IMG/VR virus record: IMGVR_UViG_3300042334_000609
Location: 1 to 28,875 of that record
Strand: one strand, 5' to 3'
DNA from: a virus
Lineage: Duplodnaviria; Caudoviricetes
Length of the DNA: 28,875 bases
Shown here: positions 1 to 15,467 of the stretch, in pieces
Position numbering within the stretch: the stretch's first letter is position 1
Layout: every line of letters starts with the position of its first letter
Position numbers and translations under genes: made by a program
Notes under the pieces: generated by a model
The model's database searches: none
Told to the model about the DNA's origin: nothing
The model's input: the letters and a program-made list of their open reading frames with translations, nothing else

Positions 1-890
1 TAGTCGGTAATTCAAATGGCACTTTTGAAATAAACTCTAATCCATTAAATGCTGCTGCTCCGTTTAGCATTTGTTTTGAAATGGACTTATACGACCCGGT
101 AATTGGGATTATAGAAATATCAATGCCATTAGGAAGTGGAGATGAAGTATTTCAAGGCATATTCAGAATAGCTTCTGCAACCGAGAACTGCAACTTTGCT
201 CCGTTAGGACTTGTGGAGTCGACTACTGGAGATGTTATTGGTGAAATTTACGAGCAAACAACTGGCACTATCGTAGATGGCGATGAGGTTTCTTTTTTTA
301 CAGAGGCCACGATTGGCGTTGCTTCAATAGAAGAGATAAAGAACAAATGCTTTTATATTAAGATTGCTTCCGAATGTTGTTGCGATGATGTGTTTTACAG
401 CAAATGTATAAAGCCATTATCTGACGCTTGCCATACTGTTGGAATAAGCTTTTGGCAAGGGGTTACGGCTACTGTGCCTGCTTACGGATTCGGTTTCTAC
501 TACCCTGCTGCATCCCCAGGCAATGAGTTCAAGCAATTCATGCGTGTATGGGGAGAGATTCGCAATCCGCAGTATGACGGAGAGATGGAAATGTACCAAG
601 ACAGCTTTGGCAGAAGGCAAGTAGTGTATGCTGAGAGCAGAGAGTTTAAGAGCTTCATTATAAACTACTCTCCTGAGTATGTTCACAATGCTTTAAGGCT
701 AGCTTGCAGACATGATAACTTTGAGTTGACAGATGTCAGCTACAATATCATTGCTCAGAACTCTTTCACTCGCTCTGAGGCATATTCTCCATCTTGGATA
801 CGGATAAGCAGGCTTGCACCGGTAACCTTAGAGGTAGAGAAGAAGACTCAGAACCTTGTTGGAGGAAGCTCAAAAACATTCTGTTCTTAA
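1..890 (+). CDS. Putative virion structural (tail-associated) protein, 5'-truncated by the window edge
   Basis: The frame of ORF 81..890 stays open to the left edge (VGNSNGTFEINSNPLNAAAPFSICFE before M81). Cys-rich, beta-rich, directly upstream of the putative tail-tube gene. Function inferred from context only. Confidence 0.55.
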   Translation, partial: VGNSNGTFEINSNPLNAAAPFSICFEMDLYDPVIGIIEISMPLGSGDEVFQGIFRIASATENCNFAPLGLVESTTGDVIGEIYEQTTGTIVDGDEVSFFTEATIGVASIEEIKNKCFYIKIASECCCDDVFYSKCIKPLSDACHTVGISFWQGVTATVPAYGFGFYYPAASPGNEFKQFMRVWGEIRNPQYDGEMEMYQDSFGRRQVVYAESREFKSFIINYSPEYVHNALRLACRHDNFELTDVSYNIIAQNSFTRSEAYSPSWIRISRLAPVTLEVEKKTQNLVGGSSKTFCS

Positions 891-893
891 TTG

Positions 894-901
894 TATATTT
901 G
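894..901 (+). promoter_or_regulatory. Bacteroidota-type -7 promoter element (TATATTTG)
   Basis: Exact TAnnTTTG match 3 nt after the upstream stop, in the intergenic gap before 970. No -33 TTG at the canonical spacing. Confidence 0.6.
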
Positions 902-915
902 TCCTGTCGTGCGTT

Positions 916-944
916 GTGGCCTTGACTTGCCATCCAAATGTCAA
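916..944 (+). promoter_or_regulatory. Predicted H-type RNA pseudoknot in the 5' leader of the tail-tube gene
   Basis: P1 GTGGC(916-920)/GCCAT(929-933); P2 TTGAC(922-926)/GTCAA(940-944). Same architecture as the two at 8712-8767. Confidence 0.6.
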
Positions 945-969
945 ACAAAACATTCCCAAATCTTAAAAC

Positions 970-1518
970 ATGGCATATTTTGAATATGGCTGCGGTACTT
1001 TGCCGAATCACCAGCTTTTAGCTTGTGGTGTTTATGATCGTGGGGGTATTTCGGCAATTGGTATTTTGGAAGCAGACCACACAATTGTTGATTACTCTAA
1101 CGCTTCACAATACACTGCAAACATTGCTGCTGGTAACCTGAAGGTTATCAAAAACATTCGTGGAACAGTACCTGATGCCTCTCCCGTAGAAGGAGATAAT
1201 CCAGTTGGCTGCGGTCCTGATACAATCCTTAACGGATTTAACTTCACCGCTACTTGGCAGGATGCTAACACTAACAGCGCAAACGTAAGCTTTTACTCTC
1301 AGCTTAACACACGCACAACCGAATTGGTATTATTCCTTTGCGGAAGTGACGAGGTGTTGGTTGTGAACAACAAAGTGAACTTTGTATGTAACCCAGTGAT
1401 GGTCCCTGCAAACAACAAAGAACTTCAGATGTTTAACTGTACAGCTCGTGCCTCTATTGGCCCGAACGAGTTGCCACAGAAATACACTGCACCTGCTGGT
1501 ATCTTTGACCTCCCGTAA
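970..1518 (+). CDS. Putative major tail (tube) protein
   Basis: 182 aa, Gly/Asn/Thr-rich and beta-rich. Codon style (aac, atc, ggt, gct) resembles the capsid gene. Has its own promoter, leader and strong terminator, like the capsid gene. Confidence 0.6.
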   Translation: MAYFEYGCGTLPNHQLLACGVYDRGGISAIGILEADHTIVDYSNASQYTANIAAGNLKVIKNIRGTVPDASPVEGDNPVGCGPDTILNGFNFTATWQDANTNSANVSFYSQLNTRTTELVLFLCGSDEVLVVNNKVNFVCNPVMVPANNKELQMFNCTARASIGPNELPQKYTAPAGIFDLP

Positions 1519-1542
1519 TTGTCGCTGCTGACAACTACTTAG

Positions 1543-1574
1543 ACCCTACCTATATGGTGGGGTTTTTTATTTTT
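1543..1574 (+). terminator. Rho-independent terminator
   Basis: ACCCTACC-TATAT-GGTGGGGT stem (one G-U pair) followed by a long T tract. Confidence 0.85.
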
Positions 1575-1604
1575 GGTTGATTAGCAATTAATTGCCTAAA
1601 TTTG
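1572..1604 (+). promoter_or_regulatory. Bacteroidota-type promoter for the glycosylation cassette
   Basis: TTTG(1572-1575)-N21-TAAATTTG(1597-1604). ATG at 1608 follows after 3 nt. Confidence 0.7.
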
Positions 1605-1607
1605 GGC

Positions 1608-2531
1608 ATGACTACGGGAATTATAATGATGGCTTTCGGTAAGCCATCCTACTATCAAATGGCATATAACCTTGCCTTGTCCATCCGTTGCTTCGATAGG
1701 GACATTCCAATTCAACTTGTACACGATGGAAATTGGGGTATCGTAGATGACGATAAGTGGGTGTTTAACGACTTTACCCAAGTAGAGAAAGATGACTTGT
1801 ACGTTGATGGCAAGTTCTCTCCCGGTAAGGCAAAGACTCGCATAGACAAATACCTAATCTATGACAACAACATTTACTTAGATGTAGATGCGGTTTGTTT
1901 GAAGCCTATCGCCCCTTTGCTAGACCACCTAAAGACTCTTAATGGCTACTTCTACTCGCAGACTGCTGCGTGGATGACTGAAGGCGGAAAGACTCCGAAG
2001 GGCAACCTAAAGAGAGATGGGAATAGCTTCCCTGAGATGCAGTGGGCAACCTTAGAGACTATTTGGGAGATTCATAAGCTTAAAGAAGATGCCGAGGTTA
2101 CTGCTATTAACAGCTCGTTCATGTATCTTAAAAAAGGAGCGAAGCTTACCAAGTTCTACGAAAAGGTAAGGGATAATATCGATAACGGCATTCCTATTGA
2201 TAGGCTTGCTATGCCATGGGGAGGCACTTACCCTGATGAGCTTGCTTACAACATAGCTTGCGCTCAGTTTGAGTTAGATCCGTTTGCAGGCGTTAACCCT
2301 ATCATGTTTCAGTACTTAGAGCCTCTAAGAGACATTGCTGGCATGAACGAAAAGTATTACTTCTTAGGACTTTACGGAGGCATAGGCTTCACGCATATCT
2401 CTGCGTGGGAGTACTCCGATAGGCTCATCCGCAAATACCATTCTGAATTAGGATTGCTACACAAATACAAGTGGCATTACTTAGCAAAAGACAAACACGC
2501 TGCAAAGCAAAAAGTACTTGTTGCACGATGA
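1608..2531 (+). CDS. GT-A fold glycosyltransferase, GT8-like
   Basis: LALSIR near the N-terminus, DxD motif in IYLDVDAVCL, NSSFMY (cf. NSGV) and DELAYN (cf. DQxxLN). ATG 1608 preferred because TTG 1602 lies inside the promoter element. Confidence 0.75.
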   Translation: MTTGIIMMAFGKPSYYQMAYNLALSIRCFDRDIPIQLVHDGNWGIVDDDKWVFNDFTQVEKDDLYVDGKFSPGKAKTRIDKYLIYDNNIYLDVDAVCLKPIAPLLDHLKTLNGYFYSQTAAWMTEGGKTPKGNLKRDGNSFPEMQWATLETIWEIHKLKEDAEVTAINSSFMYLKKGAKLTKFYEKVRDNIDNGIPIDRLAMPWGGTYPDELAYNIACAQFELDPFAGVNPIMFQYLEPLRDIAGMNEKYYFLGLYGGIGFTHISAWEYSDRLIRKYHSELGLLHKYKWHYLAKDKHAAKQKVLVAR

Positions 2532-3166
2532 AAGTAAGCATTATAACCACCTGCAAAGGAAGACTCCACCACTTGAAGGAGGCTCTTCCCACATGGCTTG
2601 AGCAGATTGGCAAGACTACCTACGAGATTATCGTAGTAGATTATGCTGACCCTGACAATAGCTACGACTATGTTGCCTCTTTGAACAACCCGAAGGTTAA
2701 GGCTGTAAAGGCTACCGATTGCGGAGATTACTTTAACCTTAGCAGGGCAAGAAACATTGGGGCATTAGAAGCCCGTGGAGACATCCTTTTCTTCTTAGAT
2801 GCAGATGCACTCCTTGAGCCAAAGTTCTTACACTACCATGTCTCTAAAGTGCTTGTAGATGGAAGTTACGTTACTGGCTGGGACTATGGAGATGGCACTG
2901 GCTGTTGTTTTGTTTGGAAGAGAGACTTCCTTGCTGTCAGAGGCTACAACGAAGTGGTAGATGGCTGGGGATGGGATGACATTGACTTCTACTACCGCTT
3001 AGACCAAAAGTTCAGCATTGATAGGCGCAAGTTCGCCTTTGGGCTTACTACAATTAAGCATGGTGATGAAGAACGAATTGAATTTTATAGAGGCAAAGAC
3101 CTTGCTGCTAGCAACCGAGAGAATCAAGCAAAAGCAAAGCGCAGATTTGTTAGCTCGATTGCATGA
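2528..3166 (+). CDS. GT2-family glycosyltransferase with GT7-type (galactosyltransferase) C-terminal motif
   Basis: MKVSIITTCKGR start, EIIVVDY, SRARNIGA, FFLDAD (DxD), and GYNE..DGWGWDDIDF (cf. WGWGGEDDD). ATGA overlap with the upstream stop fixes the start at 2528. Confidence 0.85.
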   Translation: MKVSIITTCKGRLHHLKEALPTWLEQIGKTTYEIIVVDYADPDNSYDYVASLNNPKVKAVKATDCGDYFNLSRARNIGALEARGDILFFLDADALLEPKFLHYHVSKVLVDGSYVTGWDYGDGTGCCFVWKRDFLAVRGYNEVVDGWGWDDIDFYYRLDQKFSIDRRKFAFGLTTIKHGDEERIEFYRGKDLAASNRENQAKAKRRFVSSIA

Positions 3167-4056
3167 TTAAACTACCCATAATTTTGGAAAAGCCTACAAA
3201 AATAAGAGTCATAACAAATTGGTGCGATAGCTTTGCTATTCATGATAGGATTATTGACCAATATGTAAGCACCAAGCAGTTTAAGGACAACCTACACTTT
3301 GTTAACGATGACTCTTACGAGTGGCTTGTGATATTCAATGACAAGAAGGACTTCGATATAAAGGTCCCCAAGAGCAATGTGATAGGGTTTATACAAGAGC
3401 CACCTGATCATAACTTCTTTGACAGAAACATTGGCAGCTACTGCGATGTTGTTTACACTTGCACAGAGCCTGAGGCTTACGGCATAGAAGGCAACTTAGT
3501 AGGCTTCCCTGCTGGGATGTTCTACCACATGGACGGAGATGTCGAAGAGTACCTCCAGCCTATCGAAAAGACCAAAACGCTTTCTATGATTACTTCGGGT
3601 ATCCGTGGAGGCTTCTACGAGCATAGGCACAATATAGCCAGGATGCTTGCAGGCACTAACACTTGCGATGTCTTTGGTAGAGGTCTTAATTACAGAGGCG
3701 TAAAGGGTGAGTTAGGCAATAAGTCTTACGGCTTGCTGCCTTATAAGTTCTCTATCTGTATGGAGAATGGCATTTGGGATGACTACATATCAGACAAGAT
3801 TATAGATGCTGTGATGTGTTCTTGCATTCCTATTTACGTTGGAGCAAGGAATATAAAGAAGCATATGCCTTTTGCGATAGAGCTGAAGTCTTACGAGTCT
3901 CCGAGACACGCTCTAAACGAAATAAACGAAATCATATCGAGTGTAGACTACGATAAGCAAGTCTTAGAGGTAAATAAATTCAAGCAAAAGTTCTTAAAAA
4001 AATACAGCATCTATGAAAGAATCAAAGCTAGTGTACAACAAGCCAGTTGTAAGTGA
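3163..4056 (+). CDS. GT10-family (alpha-1,3/4-fucosyltransferase-like) glycosyltransferase
   Basis: YKFSICMENGIWDDYISDKIIDAVMCSCIPIYVG matches the GT10 motif YKFxLxFEN...DYxTEK...a...iPiyxG. Also QEPP and DVFGRG. Confidence 0.8.
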   Translation: MIKLPIILEKPTKIRVITNWCDSFAIHDRIIDQYVSTKQFKDNLHFVNDDSYEWLVIFNDKKDFDIKVPKSNVIGFIQEPPDHNFFDRNIGSYCDVVYTCTEPEAYGIEGNLVGFPAGMFYHMDGDVEEYLQPIEKTKTLSMITSGIRGGFYEHRHNIARMLAGTNTCDVFGRGLNYRGVKGELGNKSYGLLPYKFSICMENGIWDDYISDKIIDAVMCSCIPIYVGARNIKKHMPFAIELKSYESPRHALNEINEIISSVDYDKQVLEVNKFKQKFLKKYSIYERIKASVQQASCK

Positions 4057-4315
4057 GGGCTTCCTTATTTGTGAGTGCGCCCATAATCGCCCTGAAGAGG
4101 GTGTGCAGATAGACTACCATGCTTTGGGTATATCTCCTCCTATGGAGTCTACCAATTACAACTGGAAACCAGCTCTATTTGCTATTGATGTTATTGATTT
4201 TGCCATTACAATGCACGATTGTGCCGATGGAACACCTACCTTTATGATTAGAGTGCAGGATATGTCTTTTATTATAAAGGGCAAGGTAGAAGACTTTAAA
4301 GACTTGATTATATGA
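4013..4315 (+). CDS. Hypothetical protein within the glycosylation cassette
   Basis: 100 aa ORF filling the gap; ATGA overlap with the next gene. Confidence 0.65.
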   Translation: MKESKLVYNKPVVSEGFLICECAHNRPEEGVQIDYHALGISPPMESTNYNWKPALFAIDVIDFAITMHDCADGTPTFMIRVQDMSFIIKGKVEDFKDLII

Positions 4316-4923
4316 AAGAGATACATTCGATTATCCGAAAGCTTTTAAAGGGCGTAGAATCCCCTATAATTGTAGAGATAGGCGCACATAAGGGAGAAGA
4401 CACGATAGTGCTTGCAGAGGTCTCTAATAGCGTTGTACACGCATTTGAGTGCGACCCTCGTAACCAGCTTACGAGAATGCCTAGCAATGTAGTGGTGAAC
4501 TACAAAGCCATCTCCGATAAGGAGGGTATGACAGACTTTTGGTTAAGCGAAAGACCTGGCGCACAATGGACTTGTTCTTCCAGCCTACTCCAGCCTGGCA
4601 ACCACTTAGTGGAGCATCCCGATATTAACTTCCAGCATAAGGTGCAAATCAAATGCACTACCCTTAGTGGCTACTGCGATGCGAAGGGAATTGATAAGAT
4701 TGACTTCTTATGGATGGATACCCAAGGTGCAGAGGCTATGATTATAGAAGCTTCCTTAGAAGCCATTCAAAAGACTGCATGGATTTATACGGAATATTCT
4801 AACAAAGAAGATTTTAAAGGTCAAAAATCCTTAGATGAAATTATGTTAATTTTGGGGGAGGATTGGGAGATTGTAAAGAAGTGGGATTGGGATGTCCTTT
4901 TAAAGAATAAACGCTATGTGTAA
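4312..4923 (+). CDS. FkbM-family SAM-dependent O-methyltransferase
   Basis: IVEIGAHKGED, VHAFECDP, AISDKEG, SSSLL, IDFLWMDTQGAE and IYTEY are the FkbM/Methyltransf_21 motifs. Confidence 0.85.
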   Translation: MKEIHSIIRKLLKGVESPIIVEIGAHKGEDTIVLAEVSNSVVHAFECDPRNQLTRMPSNVVVNYKAISDKEGMTDFWLSERPGAQWTCSSSLLQPGNHLVEHPDINFQHKVQIKCTTLSGYCDAKGIDKIDFLWMDTQGAEAMIIEASLEAIQKTAWIYTEYSNKEDFKGQKSLDEIMLILGEDWEIVKKWDWDVLLKNKRYV

Positions 4924-4951
4924 GTGTAGAACAAGAGGAGGCAAACGATGA
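4916..4951 (+). CDS. Possible 11-aa micropeptide MCKCRTRGGKR
   Basis: ATG 4916 to TGA 4951. Overlaps the FkbM stop and makes an ATGA overlap with the portal start. Could instead be a non-coding spacer with an SD-like AGAGGAGG. Confidence 0.35.
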   Translation: MCKCRTRGGKR

Positions 4952-6732
4952 TCCTTGAATTAGCAGAAGAACTGCTTTCAAAGATTGCCAAGGAGTATGC
5001 CATTTATGAGCAGAAGAAGAGGTCGAACAAGTATTACGTTCCTGACTTCTATCCTACTTATAAAGAGTGCGTAGAGATGGCAGAGCGTCTGCGTATCCAT
5101 TCGGACTATGACGCATTCCCCGAAAAGTTATTTCGAGAGAAAGCACCCAACGAACTACCTCACGAGTTTAACTATCGTAAGGCTATCTACCGACCTATTA
5201 CGGTCCCTTACTTCCACAAGGCTGTAAACATTGCAGGTCGTGTTTGGAACAGACAGAACTTCGAGGTTCGCTTTGACAACCAAAATCAAGAGCGTTACTT
5301 CACCGAGCAATACCCTCGCTTTGGCAGCTTAGAGAACTACTTCCAGCAGATTGTAAGCTTTGAAACGCTTACCGACCCGAATGCGGTTGTTGCCATTATG
5401 CCTATTAACCTTGAGTACTTCGAGAGCGGTGAGTTCAACGACTCCGTAGAGGTTACTCCAGTAGCGTACTGCTTTAAGAGCAAGCGTGTATGGGCATGGA
5501 AGGACGAGGAGTATGCAATCATTAAGGCAGAGCAGAAGAGCTATGTAAAGACCGGTAATAACGGCAAGGAAGAGGAAGAGGGCTTAGTGTTCTACATCTT
5601 CGATAAGAACGAGATACAAATAGCGAAGCAAGTTGGGAAAAAATCCGACTTTGAGTTCGAGATTGAGTTGTACTACCGACATAACTTAGGATACTTGCCT
5701 TGTCGCAGACTTGGTGGCATATCCGTACAAGAGTCAGGAGACTACTACTTCCAGTCATTCTATACTCCAGCAGTACCTGCCCTTGACCAAGCGGTGAGTG
5801 ACTTCTCTACCTTACAGATGTCTAAGTTCAGCCACGCCTTCTTGCAGAAGTGGGAATACGTTGATGAGTGCGATACTTGTAATGGCACGGGAGAGACTGA
5901 AGAGGCTATCGGCTTCGAAGAGAAAGTAGCTATTGCTTGTAGCAGCTGCGGTGGCTCAGGCACTAAGCGTATGTTTGGTCCGATGAGCGTTTACCAAGTT
6001 CAAGCACCTAACCGCTTTACCAGCGAGACAGAGACCAAGATAAACATTCCGCCTGCTGGCTTCATCGATGTGAAGCACGAGATTCTTGAGTTCTTGAATA
6101 AGCAGGTTATTACGAATATCCAAATGGCTTTCGAGCTTTTGAGTATTGACGTAATGAACAACGAAAAGATTTCGGGCAGAGAGACAGCTACCGGTAAGGC
6201 TATCGATAGGGAAGAATTGTATTCTTTCTTGCTTCGCTTTGCTAACACTGTATTCGATGACTTCGAGTTTGCTATCGATACGATTGGCTCTATGCGCTAT
6301 GGCTCTGAGTGGCAGATGCCAGCAGTACGCTATCCGCAAAACTTTGAGATGCGTACAGATGCAGAGTTGACAGAGGAGATTAAACACGCTCCTAACTTCT
6401 CTCGTGCTATGCTTGCCCAGCAGTACTTAGAGACTCGCTTCCCTATCCAAGAGGCTAAGAGTGCTATTATGAAGCTATCGGTTCAAGTTGACCCTTACTT
6501 CAACTTAGATCCGAAGGATGTGCTTTCTTTAGTTGCTTCAGGCATTGCCGAGAAGTGGAAGGCTGTTATGCACTTTGAAATCGAAGCCATTATTAAGGGC
6601 TTGGTAGAAGAGAGCGAAGGGTTCTTAGACTTACCTATGTTGGAGCAGAAAGCTATCATTGAGGCTAGGGCTAAAGAGATGACTCCACAAGCACAACAAG
6701 GATTATCTGTTGACACTATTTTGAACGCATAA
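4948..6732 (+). CDS. Portal protein with an inserted DnaJ-type CxxCxGxG zinc finger
   Basis: 594 aa, first gene of the portal-minor head-scaffold-capsid block. HNLGYLPC and ETATGKAIDR segments resemble SPP1-like portals. ECDTCNGTG...ACSSCGGSG insert. Confidence 0.8.
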   Translation: MILELAEELLSKIAKEYAIYEQKKRSNKYYVPDFYPTYKECVEMAERLRIHSDYDAFPEKLFREKAPNELPHEFNYRKAIYRPITVPYFHKAVNIAGRVWNRQNFEVRFDNQNQERYFTEQYPRFGSLENYFQQIVSFETLTDPNAVVAIMPINLEYFESGEFNDSVEVTPVAYCFKSKRVWAWKDEEYAIIKAEQKSYVKTGNNGKEEEEGLVFYIFDKNEIQIAKQVGKKSDFEFEIELYYRHNLGYLPCRRLGGISVQESGDYYFQSFYTPAVPALDQAVSDFSTLQMSKFSHAFLQKWEYVDECDTCNGTGETEEAIGFEEKVAIACSSCGGSGTKRMFGPMSVYQVQAPNRFTSETETKINIPPAGFIDVKHEILEFLNKQVITNIQMAFELLSIDVMNNEKISGRETATGKAIDREELYSFLLRFANTVFDDFEFAIDTIGSMRYGSEWQMPAVRYPQNFEMRTDAELTEEIKHAPNFSRAMLAQQYLETRFPIQEAKSAIMKLSVQVDPYFNLDPKDVLSLVASGIAEKWKAVMHFEIEAIIKGLVEESEGFLDLPMLEQKAIIEARAKEMTPQAQQGLSVDTILNA

Positions 6733-7547
6733 TGACTCCTGAGCAATTAGAAAGCAGGATACAAGACAATTTAGACTCTGTGAACGAAGAGTTCATGGAG
6801 AAGGTGGAGGAGTCGCAAGAGGAATTACTTGCACTCCTTTTGCTTTTGTTGCGTAACCTGAAGTATGATGGTGATGAGGTGGCTAACTCGCAAGAGAACT
6901 ACGCTGCTGTAAATGGCATTATGCAGGAGGCAGAAAGGGTTATGGGCAGCGGTAAATACCTTGAGGCATTAGTCTTTTATAGAGACAAGCTTGAAGAGCA
7001 GTTTCAGCTCATTAGAGACTACTTCGAGTCTATTGGTGAGCAGTTATCCCCTGAGGACATTGAAGCCATTGAAGCGCAGCAAAATAGCCTTGAGCGTTCT
7101 GCTCTTGAGTCCCTAACAGAAATAAACGCATCTGTTTACTCTCCTATCCAAAATGCCTTGATTCTAGCCATTGCTGGAGCAGGCACGAGGTCTGTATTGG
7201 AAGACTCCTTTAAGGAGATTGTTGTAGGAGATTCCATTCGTAAAGGCAGGTTATTTGTGTTTGCGAACACTTTATCCGACACGCTGTTCACTTCTATCAC
7301 AAGGTCTTTGGTAAGCACCTTTTCAAGGGTATTAGGCTTTACCAAGTTTAGATACGCTGGTGGATTGATTAAGGATTCGAGAGACTTCTGCGTAGCTAGG
7401 AATGGCGGTGTTTACAACGTAGATACAATTAGGTCATGGGCAGACATTGGCACTTGGCAAGGTAAAATACCAAATACAACAAGGACAACTATCTTCTTTT
7501 ACTTAGGCGGATACAGATGTAGGCACTGGCTTATTCCCGTTAGATAG
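6732..7547 (+). CDS. Minor head / head morphogenesis protein (SPP1 gp7/MuF-like)
   Basis: Helical N-terminus; C-terminal FRYAGG..DSRDFC...GGYRCRHWLIPV Cys/His motif; directly after the portal. Confidence 0.75.
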   Translation: MTPEQLESRIQDNLDSVNEEFMEKVEESQEELLALLLLLLRNLKYDGDEVANSQENYAAVNGIMQEAERVMGSGKYLEALVFYRDKLEEQFQLIRDYFESIGEQLSPEDIEAIEAQQNSLERSALESLTEINASVYSPIQNALILAIAGAGTRSVLEDSFKEIVVGDSIRKGRLFVFANTLSDTLFTSITRSLVSTFSRVLGFTKFRYAGGLIKDSRDFCVARNGGVYNVDTIRSWADIGTWQGKIPNTTRTTIFFYLGGYRCRHWLIPVR

Positions 7548-7577
7548 TTGATTTTCAAATATTCTTACTTAACTTTA
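7548..7577 (+). promoter_or_regulatory. Candidate promoter for the scaffold/capsid operon
   Basis: TTG(7548-7550)-N19-TAACTTTA(7570-7577), one mismatch to TAnnTTTG, in an AT-rich intergenic gap. Confidence 0.5.
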
Positions 7578-7593
7578 TCAAAAAACACAAACC

Positions 7594-7854
7594 ATGGACA
7601 GAAAAATCAGAGCCGTTGGTCCTCGTGGAGTAATTTTTATTTCTGAGGCAACAGCAAGAAACTCCAAGTTTCTATCAAAGTATGGCATCCGAGTAGAGGA
7701 TGAGACCTACTCTGAACAGCAGCCTATTGCTCAAACCAAGATTGGCAAGGCAGTAGTTGCAAGCGAAATGAAAGACCCGATGTTAGAAATATCTGAAATC
7801 GAAGTCCTTCCCAAAAAGAAGATTAAACCACAAACCATTACACCAAACAACTAA
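7594..7854 (+). CDS. Hypothetical head-module protein
   Basis: 86 aa ORF with A-rich start context, ending 2 nt before the scaffold gene. Confidence 0.7.
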   Translation: MDRKIRAVGPRGVIFISEATARNSKFLSKYGIRVEDETYSEQQPIAQTKIGKAVVASEMKDPMLEISEIEVLPKKKIKPQTITPNN

Positions 7855-7856
7855 TT

Positions 7857-8693
7857 ATGGCTATCGATCACAAGGAAATTAGCAAATGGCTATTTGACAA
7901 AGAAGTAGAGTTTGAATCTCTCGACACATTTAAGGATGAACTATCTAAGCGTTATGTCTCTCGTGAGGTTGCTGCCGATGATGAAGACATTCGCAACAAG
8001 GTAACCGGGAAGACTCTCGGCACTCTTGAGACTAAGTTTAAACGCCAGTTTGGACTTACTGAAGAAGAAGTAAAAGGCAAGAAGCTTAGTGACCTCTTCG
8101 AGATTGCTGAGACGAAGCAGAAGGGATTGATTGATGACTTGCAGGCACAGATTAAAACGCCAGGTCAAACTCCCGAAGAGATTAAGGAACTGAAGGCTCA
8201 GTTGGAAGATGCTAAGAAGCGCAGCAAAGAGCAAGAAGAGCTTGCTGTTGACTTAGGCAAGAAGCTACAAGAGAACGAGGGCGAGTTCAATAATCGTATC
8301 AATTCGTATATGGCTGATATGGAATTGAACAAAGTGAAGTCTTCTATTCAATGGGCTGACTCAGCGAATCAATACGCTAAGAAAGGCTTTGAAATTGATA
8401 TTGCAGAAAAGTTTAACTTTGTGCTGTCTGATGGCAAGTTGATTGCTACCGATAAGGCTGGAAATCAGGTTAAGAATGAAAAGGGGACTGGATATATGAC
8501 CCCTGAAGAAATTCTCCAATCTGAAGCCTCCAAAGCTGGATTAATTAAAAAAGCAGGAGAGGCAGGTTCTCAAACGGTAACCACCAACACATCTGTTCAG
8601 ACAAATACTGGCTCAGGCAACGGAGCGCAGAGAAGGTTCATTCACCCACGGGCGCAAGGACATCTCGAAGCACTCGCAGCTGCTAAAGCTTAG
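7857..8693 (+). CDS. Capsid scaffolding protein
   Basis: Highly charged E/K coiled coil with a flexible G/T/N-rich C-terminus, immediately upstream of the capsid gene. Confidence 0.75.
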   Translation: MAIDHKEISKWLFDKEVEFESLDTFKDELSKRYVSREVAADDEDIRNKVTGKTLGTLETKFKRQFGLTEEEVKGKKLSDLFEIAETKQKGLIDDLQAQIKTPGQTPEEIKELKAQLEDAKKRSKEQEELAVDLGKKLQENEGEFNNRINSYMADMELNKVKSSIQWADSANQYAKKGFEIDIAEKFNFVLSDGKLIATDKAGNQVKNEKGTGYMTPEEILQSEASKAGLIKKAGEAGSQTVTTNTSVQTNTGSGNGAQRRFIHPRAQGHLEALAAAKA

Positions 8694-8711
8694 TAATCGC
8701 ACGACAAAGCT

Positions 8712-8767
8712 GTGTCTCGATGGACATTAAACATCGAAGTGTGCCTTGGCTGGGCAGTTAACAGCCG
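8712..8767 (+). promoter_or_regulatory. Tandem predicted H-type pseudoknots in the major capsid leader
   Basis: PK1: GTGTC(8712-16)/GACAT(8723-27) and TCGATG(8717-22)/CATCGA(8732-37). PK2: TGCC(8742-45)/GGCA(8753-56) and TGGCTG(8747-52)/CAGCCG(8762-67). Confidence 0.7.
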
Positions 8768-8793
8768 TTTAACAAAAACTTTGATTTTTAACA

Positions 8794-9828
8794 ATGTCTT
8801 ACGCATTTTCTTCATTCGTTTCTTGCCCTGATATTCAGGGCCGCATTGACGAGGGTTACTTTAAAGCAGACCCTACAATGTTCCCAGGCTTCATTAACAC
8901 CTTGCGTGCCGTTACATCTCCGATGAACGAAGCAGGTATTTTGCAGAGCCAAATCGACTCAAAGAACGGTCACTACCGTGCTGTTGAAGTTGTTTACCAA
9001 CCTCGTATGTCTGACGCAGATACTTCAAGCTCTGCTGAACTTACTTGTGCTGCTGGTCCTACTTTTGGCGAGACCTCTAAGCTGTACACCATCGACCCTA
9101 CCGAAGGTGCTTCACGCAGCTGGTCTCTCTCTTTAGACCAACTCGCTCCACGTTGCGAAAGTGACGAGAACTATGTTGCTCGCCAATTAGCTATGCACAT
9201 GCAAGCTATCAAGCGTTCAATCAACTCTGAGGCTGTATCTTTCCTTTCTACCAACTTTGGTAAATTGGCTGGTGGTGGCACATTGTTGACTACTGCCACT
9301 AAGAACAACACTACTGGTGTTTACTTGGATGACTACTTGAGCGATGTAACTTACGCTTACCAAGTTGCTGAAGGATGGGATCGTCCTATCATCATCGGTG
9401 GTGAGTTGACCCAAAAGTACATGACTGCTTTGAAGAGCCATTGCTGCGCTACTGTAAACGTAGACTTAGAGGCAATGATGCAGAGCGATGCTCAGTCATA
9501 CTTCTTCTTCGAGCCTAAGGCTGACACTGTATTCGGTGCTGGTGAATTCGCATTCATGGCCCCTGGTGCTGTACAGATGCTTCGCTACAACGCTTTCAAA
9601 GGCGCACAAGGCATCCGTGTAATTGACGATGAGTCTATCAAAAAGGGTACTATCGTAGACCCTGAGACTGGCTTGGAGTTCGATTACTATGCTCAGTTGG
9701 ATTGTAACACATGGAAGTTTTGGATGGGATTGAGCTACAAGTTTGTAACTCTACCTGAAGACATCTTCTTGACTACCGATGAGTTGCATGACGTTAACTA
9801 CGTCTTCAACGGCAAGGTTTCTAACTAA
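8794..9828 (+). CDS. Major capsid protein
   Basis: 344 aa, follows the scaffold, strongly biased codons, 100-nt upstream gap and a strong terminator downstream. Confidence 0.8.
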   Translation: MSYAFSSFVSCPDIQGRIDEGYFKADPTMFPGFINTLRAVTSPMNEAGILQSQIDSKNGHYRAVEVVYQPRMSDADTSSSAELTCAAGPTFGETSKLYTIDPTEGASRSWSLSLDQLAPRCESDENYVARQLAMHMQAIKRSINSEAVSFLSTNFGKLAGGGTLLTTATKNNTTGVYLDDYLSDVTYAYQVAEGWDRPIIIGGELTQKYMTALKSHCCATVNVDLEAMMQSDAQSYFFFEPKADTVFGAGEFAFMAPGAVQMLRYNAFKGAQGIRVIDDESIKKGTIVDPETGLEFDYYAQLDCNTWKFWMGLSYKFVTLPEDIFLTTDELHDVNYVFNGKVSN

Positions 9829-9850
9829 GTTTAGAAGGTTCGCAATTACG

Positions 9851-9879
9851 AGGGGTGCTGAAAAGCATCCCTTTTTTTT
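9851..9879 (+). terminator. Rho-independent terminator
   Basis: AGGGGTGCT-GAAA-AGCATCCCT (GNRA loop, one G-U pair) followed by a T tract. Confidence 0.9.
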
Positions 9880-9883
9880 GTAT

Positions 9884-9891
9884 TAACTTTG
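9884..9891 (+). promoter_or_regulatory. -7 promoter element (TAACTTTG)
   Basis: Exact TAnnTTTG right after the terminator; ATG 9896 follows after 4 nt. Confidence 0.7.
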
Positions 9892-9895
9892 AGCC

Positions 9896-10897
9896 ATGAG
9901 TTGCTGGAATAATGTAATAGGTATAAGAGGGTTGTGCGAAGCGCAAGAACCTTCAAGCGGTCTGTATATAAACGACCTTACGGGTATCTCTATTCAAGAC
10001 TTGAATGCAGGGGTAAACAGCGAGGATTCTACCGCATTTACGCTCATTCAGAGGAAGATTGACCAAGCTGCTACTATGATGCAGGCAGAGGCTTTATCTT
10101 ACCTCTACAACCGCTGGAACTACACTACAAGCTCTTGGAACGGACAGATTGGATACTTCCCTGAGTCTTTACGTTCTTTAGGTGCTTCTGCTGTTTATAG
10201 AGGCATAGGAATGCGTTACCGCCAAGCAGACTACATTAGTGTATCTCTGAATGCTGTTACGCTTTTACTACCCGTTACGGCTACGATTAACGTATTGGTG
10301 GTTGACCTTATTACGGGGACCATCTTGGACACCATCCCGGTGAATGCCATTGCTAATAAACAAATTCGTTTAGTTACTAATAAGAAATACGCCAGCAATG
10401 GGCAGATGCTTAATTTAGCTGTTGTGTACAATGCTACATCTGTTGCTTCTTTTCAGACAGGTCTTTACCCTACTTATAACTGCGGAAGCTGCGGAAGAAA
10501 CTATCGCTGGTATGACAATATGCTTGAGCGGACCATTGAAATCCCTACAAGCGGATCTATCCTTGAGCAGAACATTAGCGGTGGAAGCTGGACTGGTGGC
10601 TTGAGTATAGACTACCAAGTGGCTTGTAGCTTCGAGAGCCTTCTATGCGCTCATATAGGGCAGCTAGGCTATCCTTTGCTCTACAAGGCTGGAATGCTTA
10701 TCTTGAAGGAGATGGAGTTCTCTAAGCGTCTTAATGGCGTTATCTCTTACAACAGAGAGCGCAACCAAGAGTTAGGCGAATACTACCAAGCGCAGTACGA
10801 TGCTTATATGCAGAGATACTTTGATGCAGCGCAGCTACCTCAGAGTGGATGTTTTTCTTGTAAGCAGAGAGTAAGGCAGGCAAGCCGAATCCCATGA
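9896..10897 (+). CDS. Putative head-tail adaptor / structural protein
   Basis: 333 aa, immediately after the capsid gene, two CxxC motifs (CGSC, CFSC). Function from position only. Confidence 0.5.
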   Translation: MSCWNNVIGIRGLCEAQEPSSGLYINDLTGISIQDLNAGVNSEDSTAFTLIQRKIDQAATMMQAEALSYLYNRWNYTTSSWNGQIGYFPESLRSLGASAVYRGIGMRYRQADYISVSLNAVTLLLPVTATINVLVVDLITGTILDTIPVNAIANKQIRLVTNKKYASNGQMLNLAVVYNATSVASFQTGLYPTYNCGSCGRNYRWYDNMLERTIEIPTSGSILEQNISGGSWTGGLSIDYQVACSFESLLCAHIGQLGYPLLYKAGMLILKEMEFSKRLNGVISYNRERNQELGEYYQAQYDAYMQRYFDAAQLPQSGCFSCKQRVRQASRIP

Positions 10898-11484
10898 CCC
10901 CTGAGCAATTCATAGCGCAGCTTAAAAGACAGAAGAGTACCTTACAAGCGGCAGCAGAGCAGTCTTTAGAAGAGGCAGCTAAGGCTACGCATATGAAGGT
11001 TTCTTCTCGCATCTTTATCCAAGGTAAGGCTGCTGATGATAGTAAGATAGGCAACTATTCTACCAAGCCATTAGTGGTTTCTAAGAAGTCTTTCGTTAAT
11101 AAGTCTGCTTTTAAGCAAAGCCAGCGACCTAACAAAGGAGGTGGCACTCGCCCTATGTTTATTAAGTTTCCTAACGCCAAGAAGGCTACTCCCGTTATGG
11201 TGTTGCCTGGTGGATACAAGCAGTTAAAGCAGATACAGAACCTTAAAAGCCAGTATGTGGACTTGATATACACGGGAAGAACGCAGAGGGCATTTATAGG
11301 CTCTCTACGGAAGTTTGGAAGGTATGGCTGGGCAGCAATACTCCGAGGCACTAAAACTGCTGAGAAGGCTGTATTGAACGAGAATAAGTTTGGCAAGAAG
11401 ATATTCGCCTTGACTAGGGAAGAGGAAGTATTCTTCACTAGGCGGTTTGTATCCACCTTCAATAAGAAATCTCAAATAACGTAA
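10894..11484 (+). CDS. Putative neck / tail-completion protein
   Basis: Basic 196 aa protein with VDLIYTG motif typical of virion morphogenesis (gp10-like) proteins; ATGA overlap. Confidence 0.55.
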   Translation: MTPEQFIAQLKRQKSTLQAAAEQSLEEAAKATHMKVSSRIFIQGKAADDSKIGNYSTKPLVVSKKSFVNKSAFKQSQRPNKGGGTRPMFIKFPNAKKATPVMVLPGGYKQLKQIQNLKSQYVDLIYTGRTQRAFIGSLRKFGRYGWAAILRGTKTAEKAVLNENKFGKKIFALTREEEVFFTRRFVSTFNKKSQIT

Positions 11485-11489
11485 CTTTG
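11482..11489 (+). promoter_or_regulatory. -7 promoter element (TAACTTTG)
   Basis: Exact TAnnTTTG overlapping the upstream TAA; ATG 11495 follows after 5 nt. Confidence 0.55.
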
Positions 11490-11494
11490 AGGAT

Positions 11495-12091
11495 ATGATA
11501 GTAACGGACATTACGAGCGAGATATTTGAGAGGCTGAAGCAATATCAGCTTGTTAAGCATTACGGCTTTGCGGAGATGCTTCCCGATGGGGATGCTACTA
11601 TCCCTGCTGTATATTGCTCTAATGGCGATTATCGGCACGTTATAAACGATTACGAGTGGACTGAGGGCATTGCCTACATCCGCTACAATGGAGCAGAGAA
11701 TACCACTTTGGTAGACGAGGTCTTTATAGGCTGCCAAGACTTGCTTAATACTGTCTTCCCTATGCGCTTAGTGGTTATAGGCAAGAGGAAAGGGCAGAAA
11801 CCTTACGAGGTAGCTTCTCTGATTAAGAGTAAGATTACCGGTATGTACGAGAACCTTGCCCAAGCTTACGGAGCAGTCTATGTAGACATTACCGCTGCCT
11901 CTGTGCAATACGATATACGGGTTAACTTAAACTCCGAGTTTGATGGAGCAGACATTGCTTGGGACACCGAGCTGTACATTATCTCTGTTGATCTTAACAT
12001 AGAAGTTCGTGGTGATGCCACTTGCTTGAACGACTTAGAGCCTTGCGCTACAAGAATATTTGATAACACTTTTGACCAAACATTTAACTAA
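11495..12091 (+). CDS. Putative tail terminator / structural protein
   Basis: Acidic alpha/beta protein in the neck block with C-terminal RIFDNTFDQTFN. Confidence 0.5.
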   Translation: MIVTDITSEIFERLKQYQLVKHYGFAEMLPDGDATIPAVYCSNGDYRHVINDYEWTEGIAYIRYNGAENTTLVDEVFIGCQDLLNTVFPMRLVVIGKRKGQKPYEVASLIKSKITGMYENLAQAYGAVYVDITAASVQYDIRVNLNSEFDGADIAWDTELYIISVDLNIEVRGDATCLNDLEPCATRIFDNTFDQTFN

Positions 12092-12629: not shown

Positions 12630-12637
12630 TAAATTTG
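12630..12637 (+). promoter_or_regulatory. -7 promoter element (TAAATTTG)
   Basis: Exact TAnnTTTG in a 17-nt intergenic gap; ATG 12642 follows after 4 nt. Confidence 0.7.
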
Positions 12638-12641
12638 CAAC

Positions 12642-13145
12642 ATGGCATTATCCAAGCTCACTAACTACGTCCTAAGCGACAGCTTCATTAGGCTCGACTA
12701 TGCTGATGGTCGGCAATGGTATGTCCCTTATGGACAAATCATAGCTACGTTAATTGACCCTACGAGCGGTCAGTACATTGCTAAGTTGTTTGAGAAGGGA
12801 TTGGTAGGAGAGACTTTGGAAGCTACCCAGGCTGACTTAGCTGCTTTAGGCACTAACGTACAAGCCTTTATCGATGCTTTGAATACTATCCTTAAAAACT
12901 TTAGCTTTTGGACTTCTATATATGAGGATTACATGAGCAGAGCTGCTACTGACGGAGGAAGCGTAGATACGAGGTTCAATTCAAGATGTGCTAAGTCCAC
13001 TTTCATAGAGGATATGCCAACTGCTACTGACGAGTACGTTTTAGTTTGGAACACTCAGACAAGGTCTTTAGCTGATGGTGGAAACGGATTCGATGCTAGA
13101 TCCCTTGATTGCTCATATGAAATTGCAGAAGAAATATTAAACTAA
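12642..13145 (+). CDS. Hypothetical structural protein; N-terminal half paralogous to 15788..16045
   Basis: RLDYADGRQ, IDPT.G.Y and DL.ALGT...AF...LN..L are shared with 15788..16045. Confidence 0.75.
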   Translation: MALSKLTNYVLSDSFIRLDYADGRQWYVPYGQIIATLIDPTSGQYIAKLFEKGLVGETLEATQADLAALGTNVQAFIDALNTILKNFSFWTSIYEDYMSRAATDGGSVDTRFNSRCAKSTFIEDMPTATDEYVLVWNTQTRSLADGGNGFDARSLDCSYEIAEEILN

Positions 13146-13152
13146 AAGAATA

Positions 13153-14337
13153 ATGGCTACACCATCCTTATATATTGCCCCTGATATGCTGAAAGCTGGA
13201 AAGCTTTACTCGCAGCTACCTCCTTCAGGCGCAGGTGACTTCACGGTAGTACGCAACACTACTGCGACTCGTGTTAACGCTTCGGGGTTGATTTCGAGCG
13301 TGGCTGCCAACGTACCGAGGATTGATTACACTGGCGGTGGATGCGGAAGCCTTTTAGTTGAGCCTGCTGCGACTAATTTAGTTTTAAGGAGTGAGGAGTT
13401 TAGCGTATCAGGAACTTGGGCGCAGGTTGATACGACAATTACGGCAAACGATTTTACAGCACCTAACGGCACAATGACCGCTGACCGAATGAACATAGCA
13501 GGTCAAAATAGCAGGGTAACACAAAGTTTTTCATTGGGAGCGACTACGGTTACTTTTAGCATTTACCTTTATAGTGCTGTATCTTTTACATTGAGAATTG
13601 TTGCGGTCGTTGATGGCAGTAATGTTAGCAGAAATATTACCATAACTGCTGGGCAATGGACAAGGTTTGCTGAAACATTTACTTCAACTGCTACTATTAC
13701 AAGCGTAGCGGTAAGGGGGTTAGCTGGCGGTAGCACGGGAGACATCTTCCTTTGGGGCGCACAACTCGAAGTCGGCTCAGTCGCTACCTCCTACATACCC
13801 ACGGTCGCAACGACACAAACCCGTAATGCCGATGCAATATCCCTAACGGGCGCATCTGCTTTGATTGGACAAGCGAGCGGTACTGCTTACGTTGAATTTA
13901 CATATAGAGGTGCGCCAACAATTAGAAGTGGTCCGCTTTATTTAAGACAAGCCACCCTTAGAGGTATTAGTTTAAGTTACGCTTCAGCTGTTGGGGGGAT
14001 TGAGGTGTTATCACGCAATAATGCAGGCACTGCTTTTATCACCGCTGTGTCAGGAACGCTTCAAATAGGCACTAATTACAAGATAGCTATTGCATACGAT
14101 GCAGCAGGTACAGCAGCAGGCGGAACTCGGGTTAACGGCATAACTATTTATGTCAATGGTGTTCTTGCTGCAACTGGTAATTTTCAAGTACCTGATGCGG
14201 CAGGTTTAAATGACATATGGTTCTATGGCGCAAATTCTTCTACCGAGGCAGAAGCATTTAATGGGCGCATCAACACCGCTGCCCTCTATCCGACTCGTCT
14301 TACTAACGCTGAACTCGCAGCACTAACCACCTTATAA
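13153..14337 (+). CDS. Tail fibre / receptor-binding protein (carbohydrate-binding plus LamG/ConA-like domains), copy 1
   Basis: Thr/Gly/Ala-rich beta protein; LLVEPAATNL, WGAQLE.GSVATSYIPT, IYVNG, and a LamG-like end (YPTRLTNAELAAL). Confidence 0.75.
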   Translation: MATPSLYIAPDMLKAGKLYSQLPPSGAGDFTVVRNTTATRVNASGLISSVAANVPRIDYTGGGCGSLLVEPAATNLVLRSEEFSVSGTWAQVDTTITANDFTAPNGTMTADRMNIAGQNSRVTQSFSLGATTVTFSIYLYSAVSFTLRIVAVVDGSNVSRNITITAGQWTRFAETFTSTATITSVAVRGLAGGSTGDIFLWGAQLEVGSVATSYIPTVATTQTRNADAISLTGASALIGQASGTAYVEFTYRGAPTIRSGPLYLRQATLRGISLSYASAVGGIEVLSRNNAGTAFITAVSGTLQIGTNYKIAIAYDAAGTAAGGTRVNGITIYVNGVLAATGNFQVPDAAGLNDIWFYGANSSTEAEAFNGRINTAALYPTRLTNAELAALTTL

Positions 14338-15467
14338 TGGCTACACCTTCACTACTAATAATCCCCGACCGCTACAAAGCAGCGAAGCTATACTCACAAA
14401 TCCCCGAATCGGGGGCAGGTGACTTTACCGTTACAAGAGGCACAACGGCTACCCGTGTGAACGCTTCGGGACTAATCGAATCCGTAGCATCGGGAGTGCC
14501 GAGGATAGACTATACTGGAGGGGGTTGTGGTAGCTTGTTGGTCGAGCCTGCTGCTACTAATTTGGCTTTGTACAGCGAAGATTTTACCCAAGCCGTATGG
14601 GCGAAAACGGTAAGCGCATCAGTATCGGGCAACACAACGGTATCGCCTGATGGAACGACAACGGCAGACACTTTTACAGCAGGTGCAAATGGCAGCCAAG
14701 TGCAGCAAGTTTTTGTAGGCGTATCAGGAACGACTTATAATGTTTCTTTTTATATTAAAAGAAGAACTGGCAGCGGAGTAGTAAACATTCGTGCAGTTGA
14801 AAATGTTAATACACCTATAACAATTACCAATAATTGGACAAGGGTTTCTTTGTCTGCAACAGCTACGTCTACCTCTATTAGGGTAGGATTAACGCTTGCA
14901 ACTTCAGGTGATGCGGTTGACATTTGGGGCGCACAACTTGAAACAGGCAGCGTAGCCACATCGTACATCCCTACCGTAGCAACCACACAAACCCGTAACG
15001 CTGACGTTATCTCTCTCTCATCCGTGAGTGGGTTGATTGGGCAGACCGAGGGAACTTTGTATGCGGAGGTAGATGTAAGTAAATTACTTGGCACAGTTGT
15101 CAGGGGAATGTTAACAATTAGCAATAACACCACAGCCAATAGGATTCAAATTGGATTTACTGGTGCATCTGCAAATACTATCAGGGTAATTTATTCGGGA
15201 GCATCAACACTAAATTACAATTTTGCTATAACAACTACTGGCATTTACAAGATAGCATTTGCTTACAGCGCATCTTCTACTGCTTTTTATGTCAACGGTT
15301 CTTTAGTTTCTGCTTTAGGTGGAAATTCATTTTCTGCCTCGGTTGGAAATGTTTATTTAGGTTCAGTTTTTGACGGAACTTCTGCCCTGAACGACCGCAT
15401 ATCCGCAGCAGCAATATACACATCTCGCCTTTCAAATTCTGAACTCGCTCAACTCACAACCTTATGA
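14337..15467 (+). CDS. Tail fibre / receptor-binding protein, copy 2
   Basis: Shares N-terminal, central and C-terminal blocks with 13153..14337; the domains in between are divergent. Confidence 0.75.
   Translation: MATPSLLIIPDRYKAAKLYSQIPESGAGDFTVTRGTTATRVNASGLIESVASGVPRIDYTGGGCGSLLVEPAATNLALYSEDFTQAVWAKTVSASVSGNTTVSPDGTTTADTFTAGANGSQVQQVFVGVSGTTYNVSFYIKRRTGSGVVNIRAVENVNTPITITNNWTRVSLSATATSTSIRVGLTLATSGDAVDIWGAQLETGSVATSYIPTVATTQTRNADVISLSSVSGLIGQTEGTLYAEVDVSKLLGTVVRGMLTISNNTTANRIQIGFTGASANTIRVIYSGASTLNYNFAITTTGIYKIAFAYSASSTAFYVNGSLVSALGGNSFSASVGNVYLGSVFDGTSALNDRISAAAIYTSRLSNSELAQLTTL

Follow-up and report, generated by a model that had tools for sequence, protein, structure and literature searches.

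Complementary elements beside leader pseudoknots suggest pairing of capsid and tail-tube mRNAs in a family of tailed phages

Introduction

The heads and tails of tailed phages are built on separate pathways and are needed in matched numbers. Structured leaders are found ahead of phage virion genes, as in the Rfam motifs GP20 and Mu-gpT-DE.

Worked examples of mRNA-mRNA control in bacteria are few. In Listeria monocytogenes, the hly mRNA is reported to pair with the 5′ end of the prsA2 mRNA and to stabilise it, with restoration in a double mutant (PMC8722363). Among compact H-type pseudoknots, the CPK-1 class is described as having a second stem (S2) of 6–7 bp, a first loop (L1) of 1–2 nt and no loop between the stems (PMC3835772), and gene 32 of phages T2/T4, whose mRNA leader carries a knot of this kind, is reported to be repressed by its own single-strand-binding product (PMC3835772, PMC10690425). 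The leader knot of tisB is tied in the published description to S1/30S loading, with a single-stranded standby region that lies 100 nt ahead of a ribosome-binding site which is itself sequestered (PMC7708055). Here we compare with these systems the leaders of the capsid and tail-tube genes in a 28,875-nt stretch of a tailed virus (Duplodnaviria; Caudoviricetes; IMG/VR record IMGVR_UViG_3300042334_000609, positions 1 to 28,875), hereafter the window, and in its relatives.

Gene layout and host

Three genes of the window are central to the analysis:

970..1518, + strand: tail tube protein gene, 182 aa (AlphaFold model with pLDDT 70; tail/tube matches in Foldseek)
7857..8693, + strand: probable scaffold gene, 278 aa (an ORF labelled from its position only)
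8794..9828, + strand: major capsid protein gene, 344 aa (AlphaFold model with pLDDT 65; phage-capsid matches in Foldseek)

The capsid and tail-tube identities, guessed in an earlier note on this DNA, are borne out by the structure models. The capsid model matched phage capsids with a best E of 7.7e-9 in Foldseek, and the top match of the 182-aa model was a phage tail chain with an E of 3.9e-4, weaker than in the capsid case; tube proteins, among them V of lambda, came lower in the list at weaker E-values. Neither the 344-aa capsid ORF nor the 278-aa ORF in scaffold position was assigned to a PHROGs or Pfam family, and no solved structure was related to the capsid ORF by sequence. The capsid leader spans 8694–8793.

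We infer a Bacteroidota host from sequence signals and from a weak portal match: in tblastn against a phage collection, the portal matched only the Polaribacter phages P12002L and P12002S (24%). In P12002L, the gene that occupies the capsid position is preceded by a gap of 34 nt. The same kind of search of the cultured-phage collection gave no match for the capsid, the capsid of locus L185 or the tube, and among prokaryote genome scans one was empty and another returned one weak 31-residue match.

Leader pseudoknots

Three H-type pseudoknot patterns lie in the two leaders:

8712..8737, + strand: PK1, capsid leader (S1 8712–8716/8723–8727; S2 8717–8722/8732–8737)
8742..8767, + strand: PK2, capsid leader (S1 8742–8745/8753–8756; S2 8747–8752/8762–8767)
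916..944, + strand: PK3, tube leader (S1 916–920/929–933; S2 922–926/940–944)

The positions and crossed pairings of these units, put forward in the earlier note, were re-derived and agree, as do the shared TGTG(T/C/G)C start of all three and the distance from the last knot to the ATG of 26 nt (capsid) and 25 nt (tube). Some details need correction. PK3 has a 2-nt interstem loop and the L3 CCAAAT; in PK1, a 6-bp S2 requires a 0-nt L1, and a 1-nt L1 leaves an S2 of 5 bp. The heptamer AACAAAA, said to follow the last knot in both leaders, begins 3 nt past PK2, whereas in the tube leader it takes in the final paired base of PK3. Its letters are not conserved in relatives, which have A/U-rich linkers.

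In their compact H-type shape, their short L1 and their place in the leader of a phage mRNA, these units resemble CPK-1 and the T2/T4 gene 32 pseudoknot (PMC3835772, PMC10690425). They differ from CPK-1, as described, in that S2 often has 4–5 bp in place of 6–7 (6 in PK2 including a terminal U-G, 6 or 5 in PK1, 5 in PK3 and 4–9 in relatives) and in the interstem loop of PK3, which PK1 and PK2 lack. The L1 of 1 nt in PK2 and PK3 and of 0–1 nt in PK1 agrees with the class and is longer in several distant relatives; PK2 alone has all the features listed for CPK-1 in that source. In contrast to the gene 32 operator, which responds to its own gene product, the window's knots precede capsid- and tube-fold genes and, in the capsid leader, stand in tandem. 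A frameshift or readthrough pseudoknot was considered and rejected, as the scaffold stop TAG at 8691–8693 is followed directly by TAA, with a TGA at 8782–8784 in the frame of the capsid start.

Equally stringent knots occurred at 7.1 per strand in shuffled sequence (n=30), compared with 17 and 10 rows, partly duplicates, in the window. Since a single knot of such stringency is common by chance, the case for the knots rests on relatives. Knots beginning with TGTG numbered two in total over the 30 shuffles against three on the + strand of the window. A perfect H-type pattern at window positions 7686–7712, which lies within an 86-aa ORF and carries no leader signature, may be due to chance.

Viral library scans yielded 73 capsid loci and 45 tube loci, with 28 different leaders among the former and 27 among the latter. 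Covariation was assessed in an alignment of 14 of the 28 capsid leaders, all close relatives. Conserved crossed pairing in homologous leaders, proposed in the earlier note as a check, was present: both sides of PK1 S2 change, in compensating fashion, at 5/5 pairs, and its pairing was kept in 90.3% of cells, compared with 81.2% after shuffling (0/500 shuffles) and 33–47% in slid controls. S1 of PK1 is uninformative, since it is invariant in this alignment; S1 sequences do differ from one unit to another and in distant clades. The signal for PK2 S2 is weaker, with 81.4% paired, compensatory change at 2/5 pairs and the last pair broken in 10/14 leaders. In PK3, the S2 sequence differs between relatives and the pairing is kept.

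A library scan that specified only S1 and part of L3, leaving S2 free, returned 96 matches, in which an S2 of at least 4 Watson-Crick pairs was found for 53/54 capsid-family matches versus 8/42 others, one of these eight being a truncated capsid leader. An exact-S1 tandem pattern, run over the viral library, revealed no other gene family clearly bearing the motif. The proposal that the knots are dedicated to the capsid and tube genes is upheld in the 29 loci scanned, where every intergenic unit ahead of an ORF precedes one of these two genes and two loci have no unit; the signature was derived from these same units, and some loci are overlapping fetches. Where it was detected in these loci, the last knot lies 20–32 nt before the ATG. 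A comparison of own versus cross S2 pairing (4.96 vs 2.87) is discounted as evidence, as the figure is biased by the selection of units for pairing and by parses that took alternative hairpins. The permissive knot finder missed many visible knots at the threshold used.

The leaders also appear, as the earlier note had supposed, to lie outside the named families. They differ from the Rfam phage late-gene motifs in that Rfam gave three sub-threshold matches in the window (E up to 5), none of them at the leaders, and no match at gathering score in 18 related loci. In the candidate-RNA catalogue of PMC10690425, the short leader motifs were unmatched in 4/6 listed supplements, and a prior listing elsewhere in that catalogue is possible. 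Taken together, the leader knots very probably fold and function, and they add a further case to a type of leader structure already described.

Relatives vary in what accompanies these knots. One distant clade (L190, L193, L195, L201, L222, L235) has tandem capsid-leader knots with different S1 sequences, directly behind its own promoter box. Capsid leaders of the L007 clade (e.g. L007:3400-3450, L043) could form an alternative pseudoknot that reuses the 3′ half of PK2 and in which an A-rich loop would pair with the U-rich linker, to within 11–13 nt of the ATG; it might compete with PK2. In L239, L240, L241, L256 and L258, a longer, different second structure follows capsid PK1, and PK1 ends 84–87 nt ahead of the ATG in L239, L240, L241 and L258. 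In L182-type loci (L182:9830-11583, L186, L189), the tube gene is directly behind the capsid gene, and the capsid leader has other structures, including hairpins with U-runs.

A complementary element in the two leaders

The earlier note regarded the motif as cis-regulatory only. This view is incomplete: a covarying complementary ("handshake") element joins the two leaders.

905..913, + strand: tube-side element, exact reverse complement of 8698–8706, predicted to form the first bases of the tube transcript
8698..8706, + strand: capsid-side element, 4 nt past the upstream stop codon, covarying with the tube element

The two elements, each of 9 nt and just 5′ of the knots, are 7.8 kb apart. The window has no exact copy besides these two, which read on opposite strands. 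The predicted duplex has 9 bp and an energy of -14.6 kcal/mol.

To compare cognate with swapped partners, the 18 nt after the tube promoter-like box were set against the capsid leader. Among 15 representatives, which are lineages with a long tube leader picked after the element had been noticed, the exact complementary run averaged 8.3 nt for cognate and 5.2 nt for swapped partners (0/100,000 permutations), and the duplex energy was -15.8 versus -11.2 kcal/mol. With one representative for each of the nine element classes, the run was 8.8 nt versus 5.2 nt swapped (1/362,880 permutations). Runs in the same orientation (4, 4, 5, 8, 4, 4, 4, 5 and 6 nt, against a mean of 4.8) stayed near background, one class excepted. 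Of 204 other upstream windows, in 13 loci, only 4 had a run as long as the cognate one.

A census covered 53 distinct leader pairs, each from a single locus. In 31 of these, many of them close kin, the tube leader is long and has a box; the run was at least 7 nt in 30 and 6 nt in one. The remainder comprised 13 pairs in which the tube gene comes immediately after the capsid gene and lacks a separate leader, 8 with a tube leader of at most 25 nt and one in which no box was found. The clade with a tube leader of 20–21 nt (four representatives: L193, L201, L222, L232) showed no such element, with A/U matches of 4–6 nt only.

The element is rewritten even in close clades, being already different among phages with capsids about 75% identical. 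The match is kept with changed sequence in L120 and L181, whose capsids are 30% and 41% identical to that of the window, and further distant lineages with a rewritten match are L185 with L237, and L239–L244. An ACG core is kept in 30/31 runs of the census. An excess of G-U wobble pairs flanking the duplex would tell RNA pairing from a DNA site; the 38 flank positions had 5 G-U versus 9 A-C, which gives no support for RNA pairing. By energy, the capsid site was top-ranked in 4/15 loci only, with ranks of 1–47 among about 340–960 windows. Across lineages, the capsid element is close to the upstream stop codon, between 12 nt ahead of its end and 17 nt beyond it. Between the L185 capsid leader and the L237 tube leader, the tube 5′ end fits two stretches of 7–8 nt about 20 nt apart, a possible split duplex. 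In one sequencing run (contigs of unspecified kind), no joints were found on window positions 1–12000, a weak result that is uninformative on expression.

Predicted transcripts and start regions

Signals that would delimit the two messages, and the regions ahead of the start codons, are as follows:

894..901, + strand: predicted Bacteroidota-type -7 promoter box TAnnTTTG of the tube gene (consensus match)
945..969, + strand: A/U/C-rich linker without Shine-Dalgarno, predicted unstructured (fold of 945–990, -2.9 kcal/mol, linker unpaired)
1541..1572, + strand: predicted intrinsic terminator after the tube gene
8768..8793, + strand: A/U-rich linker without Shine-Dalgarno, predicted unstructured (fold of 8768–8810, -1.1 kcal/mol)
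9850..9880, + strand: predicted intrinsic terminator after the capsid gene

TAnnTTTG is described as the Bacteroidetes promoter consensus centred at -7 (PMC7366714). The tube box is exact in 10/15 representatives, a one-letter variant in three and a weaker match in two. As the tube element starts 0–8 nt past the box (19 pairs), it is predicted to form the first bases of the transcript. A terminator was predicted after the capsid gene in 12/15 representatives and after the tube gene likewise in 12/15, with none detected behind the tube gene in the other three; the position of the tube element at the predicted transcript start, together with the terminator behind the tube gene, favours two separate RNAs. 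An antisense promoter in the capsid leader was rejected as a candidate, the near-match being present in the window only and not kept in relatives.

The open, A/U-rich start regions lacking a Shine-Dalgarno sequence fit initiation in Flavobacterium, which is reported to favour low structure and upstream adenines, with bS1 contacts suspected to matter (PMC7797042). When the whole capsid leader was folded without knots the linkers paired, and the open start region thus holds only if the knots form. A leader knot upstream of the start region recalls the standby pseudoknot of tisB (PMC7708055); in contrast to what is described there, the start region here is 20–32 nt from the knot and is predicted to be open and not sequestered.

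Discussion

We propose that the capsid and tube mRNAs pair directly, shielding the tube 5′ end and tying tail-tube supply to the capsid mRNA, a reading that the sequence comparison makes somewhat likely as a whole. Taken by itself, the step in which the two elements pair as RNA is probable. Among its possible effects, stabilisation of the tube mRNA is, by analogy with hly and prsA2, the likeliest main one, at slightly less than an even chance. According to this hypothetical scenario, the tube gene would have its own short transcript starting at the element, whose first 7–11 bases would form a trans duplex with the capsid message next to the scaffold stop codon; the duplex, adjoining a pseudoknot on each strand, would guard the tube 5′ end from end-dependent decay of the RNase G/Y type; and the knots, 20–32 nt ahead of an open A/U-rich start region, would serve as cis stability elements and as ribosome- or bS1-loading elements. 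Bacteroidetes are described as having RNases Y and G but no conserved RNase J and E (bioRxiv 10.1101/2021.04.08.439066), and 5′-end status is reported to affect cleavage by RNase E/G and Y (PMC3071783), so that any protection would be against endonucleases. The 5′ nuclease block suggested in the earlier note is therefore weakened if a 5′-3′ exonuclease was meant, insofar as that description of RNase J applies. At the level of the family, the chances are evenly balanced that a widespread group of phages couples its head and tail messages through an RNA complex of two molecules, in which a short duplex is flanked by pseudoknots at both ends and which would set the head-to-tail ratio with neither a regulatory protein nor a small RNA.

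The proposed pairing resembles that of hly with prsA2 in that one full mRNA would pair with the 5′ end of a functionally linked mRNA, the effect published for Listeria being stabilisation (PMC8722363). Complementary regions in the two mRNAs are kept by compensating change, as expected for regulation of this type, and comparison strongly supports the capsid-tube match as a putative variant of mRNA-mRNA pairing. The systems differ in that, in the published case, pairing joins a 3′ UTR to a 5′ UTR and blocks RNase J1, whereas here two 5′ leaders are involved, each beside pseudoknots, in an inferred host group described as lacking RNase J, and the evidence is comparative. The separate transcripts are here a prediction from the promoter box and the terminator in 12/15 representatives. 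A literature search, thin in its coverage of subscription papers, returned no account of capsid-tube mRNA pairing and none of such pairing for phage virion genes. Counting against pairing, the duplex is short, and the upstream reading frame of some lineages runs up to 12 nt into the capsid element, an overlap that would let ribosomes terminating there melt the duplex.

That position beside the stop codon, within -12 to +17 nt of its end, is also what one would look for if the mRNAs paired with the capsid message as the main target, the tube 5′ end guiding cleavage or altering translation beside the scaffold stop, so that a knot-capped capsid mRNA is freed or the ratio of scaffold to capsid is set. 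Further in its favour, the capsid leader lacks a -7 box in 14/15 representatives with the element and has one in 4/4 of the clade without it. However, these four controls are one clade, and L243 has its own capsid box yet keeps the match. The predicted fold of the window would let the element sequester PK1 until its partner binds, a cis switch that is not seen across lineages (mean z -0.18, 13 of 14 parsed) and is unsupported as a general mechanism. We consider the capsid message unlikely to be the main target. A different origin of the match, as a DNA site for a phage regulator placed at the tube start and inverted in the capsid leader, with the knots as independent cis elements, appears quite unlikely. 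The ACG/CGT core in 30/31 runs is what a protein reading DNA or RNA might keep, the flanks show no excess of G-U over A-C, and the tube copy overlaps the predicted +1 region. On the other hand, the orientation relative to transcription is always opposite, even in L243, whose two elements each follow closely on a box of their own; only two exact copies exist in the window, and other gene-preceding boxes are not followed by the element; and the sequence differs already between phages whose capsids are about 75% identical.

It is also conceivable, and in our view very unlikely, that the knots alone matter, as cis translation enhancers or protein sites, and that the complementarity has no present function or forms a long-range cis pair in a read-through transcript. 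The tandem capsid knots of the clade without the element, the reported need of a leader pseudoknot for S1 and 30S binding in tisB (PMC7708055) and the lack of a detected terminator behind the tube gene in 3/15 representatives are consistent with this. A functionless match, however, would not be rewritten in step across nine classes, and a predicted terminator lies between the two elements, 7.8 kb apart in the window. Being inverted repeats at the DNA level, the elements could in principle serve DNA inversion; this is rendered extremely unlikely by the location of the tube and capsid genes on the same strand in 101/101 loci with both (repeat fetches included), and the sites, of only 7–11 bp, have no long shared consensus.

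Under the preferred reading, the trans pairing of the capsid and tube mRNAs, the knots look like a separable cis module and the element is dispensable, since in one clade the tandem capsid knots, behind a box of their own, and a separate tube gene are present in the absence of the element. If this reading is true, pairing between the most abundant messages for virion proteins would offer a simple means of counting heads versus tails. The family offers natural controls, in that the tube gene may stand immediately after the capsid gene, apart from it without the element or apart from it with the element, and a duplex of 8–11 nt is an easy target for tests with compensatory mutants. The knots may in addition show how the Shine-Dalgarno-blind ribosomes of Bacteroidota reach high output.

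Further features of the window

Glycosyltransferase-like genes (PF00535, PF00852) and a methyltransferase gene lie between the tube and portal genes (1602–4923), suggesting glycosylation of the virion or the DNA. The portal protein (4948–6732) contains a short CxxC insert at residues 306–339 that is weakly similar to DnaJ-type zinc fingers, below the Pfam cut-off. Positions 13153–15467 encode two neighbouring tail proteins (phrog_34853, phrog_5939), paralogues that resemble each other at both termini. TAnnTTTG boxes at 9884–9896, 11482–11495 and 12630–12642, only 4–5 nt ahead of late-gene start codons, suggest leaderless mRNAs for minor virion proteins, in contrast to the structured leaders of the capsid and tube genes.
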